Shown here in pieces: positions 35,549 to 64,000 of a stretch of 64,000 nucleotides of DNA. Each line of letters opens with the position of its first letter. Positions within the stretch are counted from its first letter, which is position 1. A program made the translations under genes and the position numbers. This stretch comes from Podarcis cretensis (taxonomy: Eukaryota): NCBI GenBank assembly GCA_951804945.1, contig OX638150.1, positions 42,966,001 through 43,030,000 on the forward strand, written 5' to 3'. The notes beneath the pieces were generated by a model. It was not told the DNA's origin, did not search any database, and was given only the letters and a program-made list of their open reading frames with translations.

Positions 35549-56524
<20,976 letters not shown>

Positions 56525-56685
56525 TGTGAAACACCCCTCCTGTAAGTACTGCTCAAAATAGGTTCCTTCCCCCAGCGAAAAAGCTGTTTATCCCCTTGAG
56601 TTGGTGGTACAGGACCTGTCGGCGCTGTGCACTTTCCCTGCCCTCTGGCCACTCTGACAGTCCTGATGCCCGCTGCTCTTAGTGA

Positions 56686-56850
56686 TTTATACAGAACTAC
56701 AGCAGTAAGCACCCCCTCGCCGGCTCAGTGCCACCCTCTCCCCCGCACAGCCTCACTCTCTCCACACAGGAGATCAAAATCCATATTTTAATAAACACAG
56801 GCGTCCAATCTGCTCCCTCCATCGGATCCCCGTAATCTGCATAAAGATTA
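56686..56850 (-). promoter_or_regulatory. PCP2: Candidate promoter of the PCP2 KTEE first exon
   Basis: TATAAA (minus) at 56686-56691, about 160 nt upstream of the ATG at 56524; inverted TAATCT pair at 56833-56838 and 56845-56850. Confidence 0.5.
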
Positions 56851-58346
56851 TCCTGGATAATTGTCTCAAAAGAGCCAACACACACTTTGTTAGTGAGTGT
56901 GTGTGTGCTTATGTGTTCCCATGTGTGTACATGCACATGTGTTGCACCACAAGGAAACTGAGGAAAGCACATGCCTTTCCTTCTCGCCACTACATTTGTT
57001 TTGATGTGGCGTCATCCAGACTGCTAGCACAGTCCTTGTTTCCCTTGCCCTAATCAAGCCATGATCCGACTTCTCGTGATGTCCACTTTCAAATCAGATG
57101 TACTACACCTCTGACATGATACGACACTACTCATTTCGGGGTCTGGTACCTGAGTCAGCTACAGGCCTTAGTGCTTGGCCAGCCACTGTGAATTCTGGCT
57201 CAAGCTGACTCACAGCCCTCTGGGGTGATGTGGGAGGTAAGACTTGGCCCACTCAAGAATGCACTGCTACACACATGTGTGAACACCCTTCCTAGAGATA
57301 TAAAAGGCCTACACTAATAAATGCTTGGCACAATAGTGACAGGAAGAAAGTCACTGGCCTGTACTAAGTAGGTAGCAATAAAGTGAATTAATCTCTAATT
57401 TGTTACTTCATTAACAGTTATCTGAGCATGGAATTTCCTTTCTTGCGTTCTTAGCTCACTCATATATTTAGCCCCCCACATTACAAATGAGGAAATTATT
57501 CTGACAGTGTTCTGCCACACCCCTATAGAAGTAAAAGGGTAATAGGAAACAGCCAATGTTCTCTTAGGTAAGCAGGATCTTTTGATCCTGTCTTTATACT
57601 TTCCTTTCTCATAGTGGGACACGGGGATAAAATTGAACCAGGTAGTGGATTTGGTGAGCCCTTATTTCTGGCCCATGGAATAAAAGCTGAAATATATGAG
57701 TTGTGGCCAAGAAGCTTGTGTTCTGGATATGCTTGCTGCATGAAGCATATAAGTGTTTAAATTGTGGGAAGCCCTTTCTTGTGTAGAAGTTGAAGTTGGA
57801 AGGTTGATGGTAGATGGGGATTGTCTGCAGCAGCTGTAAGGTTCTTAAGGGAAAAGATGGGCTTTCATAGCAAAAAAGTATATGGGGGAAAGGGCTGGGA
57901 AAGTTGTTAGTCATGAACTATTTACAGATGAGGGCTGGTGGAGAAAGCAGGTACACAGGCTGGCCCAGTCCTCTGAGCCTAAATACATCTGCAGTATGAG
58001 GAAGAGCAGCTGAGTGTCAAAGGTTGACCTGGTCCAGCTGGTGCAGTTAGCCAGCTGTTGAGTTCAACAGGTGGCAAGTGGATCTTTTGAAACACAGGGA
58101 TGCCAAGGGATTTGTACAGCTTTGCAAGAGCAACTGTGGCCCTAACTTCTGCCTCCAGATTAAAGCAGAGCCATATTGTTACTCTAGGCAACTTGCCCAG
58201 CAAATGTTGGCAGCAGGGTCCGGAATAGGGTGCACATGCCTAGTAAGGTGAGTAGAAATTGGCCCTGATGGTAAATACCAACAAACAGGGTAGCCTGATG
58301 AAGGACAGAGGAGAGGCTTGAGGGCCGGGTCATGTCACTCACTCAC

Positions 58347-61300
58347 TGAATGAGGCATCTTGGTATTCTTGGTGCTGGTGTAGCGGGTGCTGGCATCATA
58401 GTCACCAAGAAAGGCACTAGGCAAGGCTTGGTACTGGCGGCCAGGCATGGACAGAGCCCTGAGAGAGCACAGGAAGAACTTCCGTGGACGCTTAACACTT
58501 CCAAGACTCTTCTTCTTCACCACCTACAAAAATGTCCAAGTCAAAGGATCAGATGGGGAAATGTATGAGGGATATGCTGGTTTCCTTACCCCCTGCCCTC
58601 CTCCCCATACTTGCCAGTTTCTTTCCAAACCCATTGGCTTTCTCAGCCATTTGGATTCTCTGGTGATTGTCACACAGGTGGCCAGGCTTCTCAAGGCTTA
58701 TGCTTTATGCTCCCCAAAAGGCCACTGAGACCAATTGTAAGCATTTTCTCAAAATATATCCCAAGTTTAGCAGTAACCTCTCATTTGAAAAAATCCCTAC
58801 CTGGGCAGACATGTTCCCACTTTGATGATACGATGTTGCAGTGATGGTCTGGGATGATATATGCTGAGAGAGAAACATAATTAGACAACGTAGTCAGCAA
58901 GACAGGCCCCAACAAAAATGTTGCTCTACCTCAGGACAAGAGCCTCCTGGACAGTCTGGGCCATCCCCATGGAGCTTGCTGAATTTTTTGTTTAGAAATA
59001 TATAGTGTTAATTCAGATCAGTATAGTCGTATAGATCTTGATGTTTTATTTCAGAACATCATAACTGTATATAAATTAACTGAATAGTTATCAGGGACAG
59101 GGCCTTTTCTGTGGTGGCATCTGTGAAAACACTTGCACAATCTTTTCACAGCATCCTGTGTTTGACATATCCTCTCTAGGACTTGGCTGGCTTTGAAAAA
59201 AACCGTAAAAAAAAAATCCAGAGAGCTTTTGGGTGATTTTATGGCACTGCATTTTAATAATGAGTTTATCTTCTGGTATTGTTTTTAATGTTACTGAATG
59301 TTGTTGTTGCTTCATCTTATTGTTTAATATATTTCTAATACCTCCTGCTGTTGTTTTGTTGTCACCCTGGGAGGGTGAACACCCAGGGGTTGCCAACTTT
59401 TTTGAACTTCAGGACACATTTGTAATTTTGATAAAGGGATGTGGGTAGCAGTTGCAAAATAGCTGCCATGCAGTGTGTGGCATATCACAAAGTGGCTATT
59501 GTCGGGCATGACACATCACAAAATGTCTGTCACTTCTAAAAGAGCAGGAGAAGAGACACAACCAAAAAATTGTGCAGAGAAGACTAATTCAAAAATGTTT
59601 GTAACATGGGCATGTAAAGATCCAAGCATATTCCAGAAACCTCCTTCGCCACCAAAAAAAGTGAGTTTGTACTGAATTACCTAGACACTAGGGATACTGA
59701 AGTACTTTGGCATGGTTTTTATACTTGATGTTCAACAAGCACGGTCAAATCACAGATCACATTTGTCTCAATGGACTGAAATATAAGAATCAGAGATCCA
59801 GCGCATCCCATGCCACAGATTTGTCAATTCTTATTATTTTCTCATCTGCTCCAAACCACAATAAAATCTGAGTCCACACCTACAAATTCTATATGTCTAT
59901 AGGTTTCTCTTGGGGGGCGGGCGGTGTCCTTGTAAAGATCACAAAGATCCATATGGCTCCACACCAGAGATTTGAGTTGGCACTAAAGAGCAACTTATCT
60001 GTAATTTTTATTTTCTTAAAGTTCATTGAGACAGATGTGTTCTGTGCCTGATGGCTGCATTGGGACATATCTTGTGTGAAGATCATTCTTGTGAAAGAGA
60101 AGTTTTCATGTGAAGCTATACTGCATGAATAGAGTTCAGGTAAGTTCAGGGTGGAGGGGGCACAGGGCTGCCTTCATTCTATTGAATACACACACACACA
60201 CACACACAAACACCCTGGTCAATTGGTGAAAATGAAGGAGAAATCCTGAAGCCAGTAACATATCACTTTCACAGGGAAGAAGGGCAAACCAATGGGAAAG
60301 TGCCATAGCAGGCATCTACTTTGAGTGCAGAAGGTCTTGGGTTCATTCCCTGGCATCTCCAGGTAAGGGGTGGAAGTGTCCTCAGTGCGAAACCACAGCC
60401 AAACAGCATAGTAGACAATACTGAGCCAAATATACCAATGGCTGGAGCTGGTACAAGGCAACTTCTAACCGTCCTAAGTGAGGCATGCCCCAGAGATTCC
60501 AGCAACCCTTTTAAAGAAAAAGTGACCATTGGGGGGCAAGCAAGCACTCAAGCTATGTGGAGGCAAGCCAGTGGGTGGGAATCTACCCTGCCGTCTCCAG
60601 CACCCCCTTTCTAAAATGTGAACAAACAACTGTTCACTCTGGAACAGGAGAAGCAGCTTCTGTGAAGGCAGCCAAGCAAAGGGGGTCCCCCCTGGCAGTG
60701 GCGTAGCGTGGGGGGTGCAGGGGGGCCCGGCCGCACCGGGCGCAACATCTGGGGGTTAGGGGTAGGGGTAGGGTTAGGGGGTGAAAATCCACGGGTTAGG
60801 GGGCGCAAATTACTTGCCTTGCCCTGGGTGCTGACAACCCACGCTACGCCACTGCCCCCTGGCACTACCTCAAGTGTAAACAAAGAACTAAACCCCCTTC
60901 TTCAGGTTTGTTTTTTTAAAGTCCCTTCAGCCAGGCCCAAAACACCACTTTGGGCAAGTGCTCAGTACTGCAGCTGCTGGCATGAGGTGGGCCTCACAAG
61001 TTCTGACATTGTCCCCTCAAACCTCTATGTACCACGGTCACCATGGCTTGCTTACCAAAGCCTAGTGGTGCCTCTTCTCCAAGTGAAGTCTCTGTTGCAT
61101 CGAGACAAGAGGGGAGGCATCCAATCACAGCCACGACCCACTATTCCCGGCATCCAATCAAAACTGAGTATTGCAAATGGGCGTGCTCAGGCCCACTCTA
61201 GGCCTAGCCAAAGAGACATACACCAAAGAGAATTGAAGTAGGCACTGCAGTAGGGCTTGGTGGGGGCACTGGTGCCCATGGGCAGGGCATTGGTAAACCA

Positions 61301-63006
61301 GGGCCGCATAAGAGTGGGATTTTTAAAGTATGTTGAATGAAATTTAAATTTAAATATACCACAGCTCTGTAACATCTTATATTTTCAAAACATTGAGCTG
61401 GCACTGTGTAAATAAAAAAAAAAGGCGTTTATGTACTCACCCACCTTAAGCCAGGATTTGATACCCACAGTCCCATCTGTTTTGAGCAGAGGAGACATCA
61501 AAAGAAGCTCTCTCTGTGAACAAGTGCAGTGGTAGCTCATGTTGGTGCTCTCCCCCACCCCCAGCTGATGAGGCACCATTCTTTTTCTTTTACTGCTCTT
61601 TTGGATGTGGCAGCCATTTTGCATTACGCCACAGCTATTTTGCGATTGGCACACATGGCATTTTCTCAATATTCCAAATGCGCTCATTGGTCCCAAAAGG
61701 TTGGCCAGTTATATCCCAGGGGGTAGCTAAACCCCAGGTCCAATCCAGAACATTCTGTGATGTCAAAATTCTCCTGGTAATTTAAATTCCTGCAGGGAAT
61801 TGATCCATTAGATCTTTTAGCAAAGCTTGGATCACTTAACCAGCTAATAAAATATTTCTTCAGGATCTTACCTGGTTGCAAATGGATGCATGCACAGGAA
61901 CTGTCTATAAAACGAATCAAAACACCACGCAATCTGCATTTATTTATGAAAATGTTTATACTATATTCTACATTTTTGTCTTTGCAAAAGACGCAAGTAG
62001 CTAACAAAACCTAGCCAGATGGGCAGGGTATAAATTTTTTATTATCAACATCTTATTAAAAAGTTTAACTCTCTTTTCTGTCTGTACAGATGCTCTTAGT
62101 CAAAAGTATATCATATTAGTCAAGATACACCCCTGAACACATTTGTCATGGCTGTATTGTGTAAGAAGTCAATGTAAAATAATGTGTTCTTTACTGATAG
62201 CTTTCTAACATCTGCTAAATGCAGTAATATTGCTGTCCAAGAATCTTTTTATGTTGTGTTTGAGAAAACATAGCTATTATTATGATCACACCAGAGAAGG
62301 TTTTGCAGTTTTAAGATAACTGAAACATATTCGTGTGAGCATGTAATTTTTGCATTATAAAGAACAGGTAATTGCTAGAGGAAGTTGGTGAGGAAAGCCT
62401 GCGAAGAGACAGCAAACATGTTTTTTACCTGTAGACGTGATACAGAACAGGTAAATATGAGAGGTAATGTGAAAAGAAGGGAAATCAAGAAACTGTACCC
62501 TAATGGTGCTAATGGAGCAAATACGTAAGTGTGACATCACATTTCCACCATCTTATCTGCAACCTTGACATTATCAGCACCATATTTATCTGTAGGAACT
62601 GAGGAAGCTGCCTTATAGCAGATGAGAAACTATTTGTCCATCTAGCCTGCATTACCCATTATGGCAGGCAGCAGCTTCCCAGCAGAGAAGCCTCTTTTAA
62701 ATGGAGATGCCATTTGTACCTTTGGTTTGCAAAGCACATACTTCACCGCTGACTGAACTATAGTCCCTTCCCTTAAAAGAGAAAGCATTTTCCTACAGAT
62801 ACCTATAGTCTTTGCCATTTCCTTCCCTTTGGGTGTGTGATGTACTTTATGAGTGGGAAAAGGCACACCAGAACTAGTTTGCCTTTCTAAACCTGATGGA
62901 GAAATTCTAATGACTTCACATACACCCATCGCCTGCCCATTTGTTCTTCTCGCTTACCTGAGATGCTCACATCCACTACTTGTAGACCGTCCTCTGCTAT
63001 CTCCAT
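58347..63006 (-). CDS. Candidate alternative 4-exon 5' coding leader for PCP2
   Basis: Exon-like segments 62958-63006, 61872-61904, 61445-61476 and 58347-58523 with canonical splice sites. Together 291 nt, open, ending in phase 0. No homology evidence is available to me. Confidence 0.4.
60696..60854. mobile_element. hAT MITE with G-rich, telomere-like interior
   Basis: 17-bp TIR CAGTGGCGTAGCGTGGG / CCCACGCTACGCCACTG; 8-bp TSD CCCCCTGG (60688-60695, 60855-60862). Confidence 0.85.
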
Positions 63007-63126
63007 TTCCTTGCGCTATCAGATGCAGGGCGGATGGAGTTTCGTGGCCCCTGGAGCCTTGTTAGCACTAGCACCAGTGCATTTGCCAACTTAGCCAAAG
63101 CAAGTTTCTATGGCACCTGACTCCTC

Positions 63127-63255
63127 NNNNNNNNNNNNNNNNNNNNNNNNNNNNNNNNNNNNNNNNNNNNNNNNNNNNNNNNNNNNNNNNNNNNNNNNNN
63201 NNNNNNNNNNNNNNNNNNNNNNNNNNNNNNNNNNNNNNNNNNNNNNNNNNNNNNN
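63127..63255. other. Assembly gap (129 N)
   Basis: Run of N characters. Confidence 1.
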
Positions 63256-63388
63256 AGAGAAAAAAACTGGTCTTCAATGGTCTTGAAAAGGAAGGTATGA
63301 AAGATAAAGAATTCCCCTATTGAAGCAGAGAATAACTTGAGTTGGAAACTCCTCTTGCACTGAAGGAGGGCAGTGTCAGCCAAAAGAG

Positions 63389-63390
<2 letters not shown>

Positions 63391-63451
<61 letters not shown>
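63391..63451. repeat. Compound (GT)n(GA)n microsatellite
   Basis: Directly visible in the sequence. Confidence 0.9.
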
Positions 63452-63538
63452 TGTTCAAGCACAACACACTCAGCTTTAGAATGTCAGGAGAACACCTGCT
63501 TTAGGGTGACAGTAGCATTTGAGGGAGTGCAACCCCAA

Positions 63539-63754
63539 GTGCAAGTAGATAAATAGGTACCACTGCAGCGGGAAGGTAAACGGCATTTCCGTGCGCTGCT
63601 CTGGTTTGCCAGAAGCGGCTTAGTCATGCTGGCCACATGACCCGGAAGCTGTCTGTGGACAAACGCCAGCTCCCTCGGCCTATAGAGCAAGATGAGCGCC
63701 GCAACCCCAGAGTCGGTCACAACTGGACCTAATGGTCCCTTTACCTTTACCTTT
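63539..63754 (+). mobile_element. 5'-truncated Sauria SINE
   Basis: Core plus (ACCTTT)n tail; direct repeat AACCCCAA (63531-63538, 63755-63762). Confidence 0.85.
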
Positions 63755-64000
63755 AACCCCAACACCAGGAAACTCAACTGGGATTTTTTTTAAGTGGGAG
63801 AGAACAGGAAGCTTGCCCTTAGTGGAAAAGCTGCAAGGGCCCCAACAGCCACAATGCAGGTGCAATTAAAATGGCTCCAAGTTGCTAGATCTATTTCTTC
63901 CCCACAGAATATTTGGTTTCTACTGAATGCATATGAAGCAAACATATTTGCCTTCAGCGCATCTCCCCCAACCGCCGAACACAGGATTTAGAACCATCAA

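Follow-up and report, generated by a model that had tools for sequence, protein, structure and literature searches.

In Purkinje and bipolar cells of mouse and human, the small protein PCP2 (also known as L7 or GPSM4) regulates G-alpha-i/o. According to two accounts, it occurs in mouse as forms A to D, including Ret-PCP2 (form C), and in human as forms A and B, which differ by alternative first exons, start codons or exon 3B (PMC5552061, PMC3939015). Among other G-protein regulators, RGS4 depends for its targeting to the plasma membrane on Cys12 next to an amphipathic helix (PMC4555961), and the membrane anchor of R7BP consists of a polybasic stretch and a palmitoylated Cys (PMC2171691). Here we analyzed a 64,000-nucleotide stretch of the Podarcis cretensis genome (contig OX638150.1, positions 42,966,001 to 43,030,000; the window), which carries PCP2 on its minus strand. 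Like mouse and human PCP2, the lizard gene is predicted to form isoforms via alternative first exons; the accessible parts of those accounts describe no basic N-terminal exon several kilobases upstream. Judged from its sequence, the PCP2 gene in the window, which is that of a wall lizard, very probably has two first coding segments used as alternatives, one acidic and the other basic and located further upstream. The same basic exon is joined to the GoLoco-1 exon in predicted PCP2 proteins of Podarcis lilfordi (CAI5766290.1), P. muralis (XP_028573090.1) and Hemicordylus (XP_053151651.1), as well as in those of Pelodiscus (XP_025038824.2), Sminthopsis (XP_074156906.1) and Tachyglossus (XP_038596412.1).

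An earlier note on this stretch had proposed an unrecognised leader of four coding exons (segments 1 to 4 in Table 1), which would give PCP2 a Cys-rich, polybasic N-terminus of 97 residues. The four segments do lie on the minus strand where they had been placed, with the quoted flanks and GT-AG ends. Their lengths of 49, 33, 32 and 177 nucleotides add up to 291 nucleotides or 97 open codons, and the postulated protein of 255 residues was reproduced when they were joined to the GoLoco-1 and GoLoco-2 exons and, via acceptor 35737, to the terminal exon. An upstream basic N-terminus running in phase 0 into the GoLoco-1 exon had been rightly proposed as well. The four-exon, 97-residue model itself is mostly wrong and not supported: one of its segments, segment 4, is a conserved coding exon. 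This exon had not escaped annotation, as it is already part of PCP2 models at NCBI from lizards and snakes as well as from turtles, marsupials and echidna, and the marsupial and echidna models contradict the view that mammalian PCP2 has no such N-terminus. None of the retrieved reptile and mammal models, all of them automatic and with no function attached, contains segments 1 and 2.

The 59-residue peptide of segment 4 matched 8 proteins among 23 candidates, with expectation values (E) of 7e-28 to 1e-8. Seven of these are squamate PCP2/GoLoco models, from Lacerta, Hemicordylus, Lerista, Varanus, Liasis, Pogona and Rhineura. Searching with the full isoform revealed the same N-terminal region in turtles and marsupials, and a profile of 11 reptile N-termini scored Vombatus with 23.6 and Sminthopsis with 22.3 bits, compared with a best value of 11.5 bits in 2000 shuffles each. 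Dromiciops and Naja were added by a tail profile search, six more marsupials by cluster members, and a gecko together with an echidna PCP2 model by a word-free search. The echidna match (E 1e-6) was accepted for its position in a PCP2 model, where GoLoco-1 follows at once, and not for its E-value, as two of the 11 word-free matches (P0125 and P0127; E 6e-7 and 5e-6) turned out to be unrelated repeat proteins. For comparison, we compiled 33 rows, one per species and each chosen for having the segment. Counted from the anchoring Y-x-x-L-P, Asp at +10 and Tyr at +17 occur in all 33, and the 34 residues preceding this anchor carry a net charge of +4 to +10 in every row. Less uniform are the L-C core (24 rows), K[KR]x[KR] (13 rows) and KRPR (six rows).

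Placental, bird, crocodilian, amphibian and fish proteins gave no tail match, neither among the 8000 candidates of the tail profile search nor in the word-free search of one representative per 50% cluster. Nine frog proteins from four species have acidic starts and lack the tail motif. The absence outside reptiles, marsupials and echidna is weak evidence, since candidates were limited, only cluster representatives were covered, no genuine placental PCP2 was retrieved and the bird record has gaps; PCP2 is missing from some bird assemblies, as stated in one report (PMC6792250). We infer that the basic-tailed isoform arose by the amniote ancestor. A literature search, with subscription journals mostly outside its coverage, found no published account of a PCP2 isoform with a basic N-terminus, be it from reptiles or from marsupials. 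The basic-tailed isoform, already present in automatic annotations, is apparently undescribed in print.

Translation of the basic isoform is predicted to start in an exon that the four-segment model had missed. Its ATG at 58812-58810 opens a four-codon start, M-S-A-Q, ahead of segment 4, which is found in ten out of ten lacertid models, and an M-x-x-Q start recurs in 16 of the 33 species rows, covering lizards, turtles and marsupials. Based on this conserved start, the conserved N-terminus comprises 63 residues instead of 97, and the supported coding part shrinks from four exons to segment 4 plus the last 12 nucleotides of the missed exon. All ten lacertid models run through the exon ending at 58801, none of them using the proposed direct join 61445>58523. 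The Cys-rich character is lost along with the longer leader, two of its three Cys being located in the unsupported segment 2.

The acidic alternative shows the opposite composition, with 5-13 Asp/Glu and 2-3 Lys/Arg in seven acidic first segments. Marsupials have both kinds (P0099 basic vs P0100 acidic). We take the long mammalian PCP2 form to be acidic at its N-terminus like 56396-56524, a form seen here only in the marsupial proteins P0100 and P0105. In 28 of the 33 rows the motif of the basic segment is directly joined to GoLoco-1; the remaining five are the Lerista and Varanus GenBank models, which insert the acidic segment, one turtle with a short insert, and two fragments. An in-frame AG acceptor with a weak pyrimidine tract lies five codons before the acidic ATG (56539-56396, minus strand), and its use in the Lerista model places both segments, basic and acidic, in a single protein. 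A further alternative first exon at 53331-53408 (minus strand) is used by the P. muralis model P0038 (85%).

Segments 1 to 3 are likely material of the 5' untranslated region (UTR) rather than coding sequence. Three Zootoca models (P0010, P0011 and P0014) read the first three codons of segment 3 in frame 0 and then continue in frame 2, and they splice it to the 58801-58863 exon, not to segment 4. The ATG of segment 3, in frame in Zootoca, is out of frame in the window, where it opens a 33-residue out-of-frame reading frame. We infer a 2-nucleotide indel between Podarcis and Zootoca as the explanation of this register shift, as a consequence of which segments 1 and 2 would fall out of frame in Zootoca. 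Together with the join missing from all ten lacertid models, this leaves neither the frame nor the splicing of the leader conserved in related lizards. Among 134 proteins, collected by querying with segment 4 and GoLoco sequences and with no database-wide search made, the peptide of segments 1 to 3 found only six Zootoca residues, and segments 1 and 2 remained unmatched. Its open frame is no better than chance, as 37 random intronic codons stay open 15% of the time. Five of the ten lacertid models begin at the equivalent of 58812, and the other five carry two differing lineage-specific extensions.

All of this speaks against a real and functional leader of four coding exons, with 97 residues or, if the missed exon is included, 118. 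Such a Podarcis-specific extension nevertheless keeps a small chance, owing to its strong donors, a strong ATG context and a frame that stays open without the missed exon (255 residues) and even with it (276 residues). On splice-site scores from an approximate matrix, the donors of segments 1 to 3 are the top three of six minus-strand donors of at least 5 bits within 56000-64000, and upstream of 58870, two donors of at least 7.1 bits occur within 4.2 kb, compared with about 0.5 expected. With G at both -3 and +4, the ATG of segment 1 lies in a more favorable context than the 58812 ATG, and segment 3 is an exon in the Zootoca models. Altogether, we consider this extension very improbable. Within the same region, 60264-60308 (minus strand) matches the N-terminal extension of the Lacerta and P. 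raffonei X1 models; in the window it is split over two frames and GT is absent where those models end. It is presumably derived from a short interspersed nuclear element (SINE).

In respect to function, the opposite charge of the basic and the acidic N-terminus on a GoLoco protein most simply changes its location. The explanation that we favor as a whole, i.e., a PCP2 gene with two first segments whose basic 63-residue tail likely serves as membrane anchor, has in our estimate an even chance of being correct. The anchor taken by itself, a tentative proposal made by analogy, falls somewhat short of that for a guanine nucleotide dissociation inhibitor (GDI) with two GoLoco motifs. Expression of the basic isoform would depend on a promoter located upstream and on 5' UTR exons that vary, segments 1 to 3 being among the candidates, and splicing is predicted to link the 63 residues of its basic segment (from the 58812 ATG through segment 4) with both GoLoco exons. 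The basic stretch would then bind acidic lipids, the L-C core might be palmitoylated, and the anchoring would hold the GDI near membrane-bound G-alpha-i/o in its guanosine diphosphate form, with the acidic isoform staying soluble. An assembly gap of 129 N at 63128-63256, about 120 nucleotides upstream of segment 1, might conceal this promoter or a first exon.

The likeness to RGS4 and R7BP is that a protein regulating G-protein signalling combines basic residues with a Cys close to a hydrophobic patch. In contrast to these systems, for which no homology to the PCP2 tail is shown, the single Cys of the tail is absent in nine of the 33 rows (colubroid snakes, gecko, dasyurids and bilby) and its amphipathicity is no better than that of shuffles in 22 of 23 rows. 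Both points weigh against an anchor, the hydrophobic moment exceeding that of same-residue shuffles (p<0.05) in a single row. Further objections are that every splice join is taken from gene models only (a search of sequencing runs with 58340-58870 listed no RNA data set and is not counted as evidence), that an AlphaFold prediction from a 14-row alignment shows no helix in the tail (the whole model being of low confidence and uninformative, with a mean predicted local distance difference test, pLDDT, of 55 and a predicted template modelling score, pTM, of 0.12), and that the best-kept feature, the tyrosine motif, is left unexplained by lipid binding.

The tyrosine motif could itself be the functional element, with Y-x-x-L-P...L-(G/D)-D...Y as docking site for an adaptor, kinase or scaffold and the basic stretch being secondary. 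This would agree with its spacing, fixed in 33 of 33 rows, with identities to Podarcis of 8-16 out of 18 in the motif compared with 9-30 out of 34 in the basic part, and with the start of some squamate models (P0008, P0019, P0039 and P0117) at a Met just before the motif. Turtles and mammals lack this Met, whereas the basic part keeps its frame and charge. As the tail belongs to no Pfam family and has neither an Atlas match nor a match to a solved structure (PDB) below E 0.16, no docking partner can be named, and we regard docking as unlikely. With its variable basic part ahead of a fixed motif, the tail would also fit a mitochondrial presequence that is cleaved close to the conserved tyrosine and directs the two-GoLoco GDI to mitochondria. 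Reptile rows show several traits in line with this, i.e., a first acidic residue only at position 40-48 (eight of eight rows), Arg-rich turtle tails (7-8 Arg, one Lys) and R-x-Y, as in a presequence cleavage pattern, before the motif (six of eight rows); the marsupial cores have the highest hydrophobic moments (0.5-0.88). Lys runs in squamates do not fit, nor do the marsupial rows, four of five being acidic by position 8-11 and none of the five having R-x-Y, and an amphipathicity above shuffles in only one of 23 rows is a poor match too, which makes this reading rather unlikely.

Nuclear targeting, suggested in the earlier note along with membrane targeting, fares worst. The window does have KRPR, and unpalmitoylated R7BP relocates to the nucleus (PMC2171691). 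On this reading, the tail might be a signal for nuclear localisation or, as in R7BP, might switch the protein between membrane and nucleus. KRPR, present in few rows as given above, is altered even in Lacerta and Zootoca, and K[KR]x[KR] appears in none of seven marsupial rows scanned; a conserved K[KR]x[KR], the mark of a classical signal, was not found across the 33 rows. A nuclear role is therefore highly doubtful, and the membrane remains our leading guess.

Table 1. Features of the PCP2 gene in the window (positions counted from the first nucleotide of the window)
Feature	Positions	Strand	Basis
Segment 1; strong donor, well-placed ATG; likely 5' UTR exon or chance site	62958..63006	minus	donor 7.6 bits
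Segment 2; strong donor, fair acceptor, two Cys; likely 5' UTR exon or chance site	61872..61904	minus	donor 7.1, acceptor 4.5 bits
Segment 3; exon in Zootoca models, likely 5' UTR in Podarcis cretensis	61445..61476	minus	Zootoca models P0010, P0011, P0014
Missed exon, 63 nucleotides, phase 0/0	58801..58863	minus	tblastn 95-100% to P0001, P0010, P0011, P0014, P0015; AG and GT flanks
Segment 4; conserved coding exon of 59 codons with basic stretch, L-C core and Y-x-x-L-P...D...Y motif	58347..58523	minus	database homology
TATAAA ahead of acidic first exon, putative promoter element	56686..56691	minus	read from sequence
Acidic alternative first coding exon, inside intron skipped by basic isoform	56396..56524	minus	tblastn 57-66% to P0004, P0005, P0024, P0031; phase-0 donor
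GoLoco-1 exon	48304..48427	minus	100% to lacertid PCP2; PF02188
GoLoco-2 exon	46549..46712	minus	96-98% to Podarcis/Lacerta PCP2; PF02188
Start of short terminal exon (one Lys, then stop), giving the 160-residue form	43228..43233	minus	model identical to P0012
Long terminal exon, 62 codons, NAGNAG acceptor 35740/35737	35549..35737	minus	tblastn 67-76% to other lizards' PCP2

The identity of the locus is PCP2, on which the GoLoco pair and a CAMSAP3/XAB2/PET100-type neighbourhood agree. A Pfam search detected two stretches of PF02188 (75.5 bits) in the PCP2 model of the window, the GoLoco triads E-Q-R and D-Q-R are invariant across 14 aligned rows, and the best database matches of the full window isoform are PCP2 proteins. 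A Pfam search of 73 candidate exons, 12 of which matched, placed CAMSAP_CKK (plus strand), HAT_Syf1 (minus strand) and Pet100 (plus strand) exons at 11.6-32.6 kb in the left half of the window; XAB2, PET100 and CAMSAP3-type genes are neighbours named with Pcp2 in one paper (PMC4467842). The 160-residue window model shows no difference in 160 positions from P. lilfordi CAI5766290.1 (P0012), one from P. muralis and P. raffonei each, and four from Lacerta agilis.

At the 3' side, at least three alternative terminal exons were recognized on the minus strand (44692-44733, 43228-43233 and 35549-35740). The basic start combined with the long terminal exon yields 221 or 222 residues. Turtles and frogs also have this exon, which carries a conserved D-D-Y-F-S-F-I-N motif, and marsupial models have other ends. 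Two candidates were rejected here: a tblastn match at 41804-41851 (23 bits) was dismissed as chance, the true long terminal exon being 35549-35737, and a 14-nucleotide microexon at 43439-43452, which would yield 248 instead of 255 residues, has no homologue support.

Several further observations concern the window and the protein set. A dispersed repeat, presumably a Sauria SINE, is present in three copies that are 84-91% alike (39153-39476, 46900-47224 and 63537-63756). Within the upstream intron, two plus-strand consensus CAG/GTAAG donors at 60139 and 60362 are possibly antisense or repeat-derived, and a short degenerate CCCTAA/CCCCTA run lies inside a GC-rich insertion at 60750-60790 (minus strand). 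Two database labels are apparently wrong: P0032, named 40S ribosomal protein S12, is a turtle PCP2, and P0066, labelled giant panda, shares 89% identity with the GoLoco region of the lizard, well above marsupial proteins.

The interest of the basic exon is limited by its presence in automatic annotations, by a function that is a guess and by a placental loss resting on negative searches. A bolder and distinctly unlikely version would have amniotes ancestrally making a second PCP2, whose 63-residue basic leader directs the GDI with its two GoLoco motifs to an organelle, perhaps into mitochondria, and which was kept in reptiles, monotremes and marsupials and lost in placentals; if true, work in mouse would have missed a compartment-targeted brake on G-alpha-i/o. 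Irrespective of the destination, the retention of a choice between basic and acidic N-terminus from lizards through to echidna and marsupials implies that a second localisation or a second partner is under selection, and the two isoforms represent a ready comparison for the cellular placement of GoLoco proteins.

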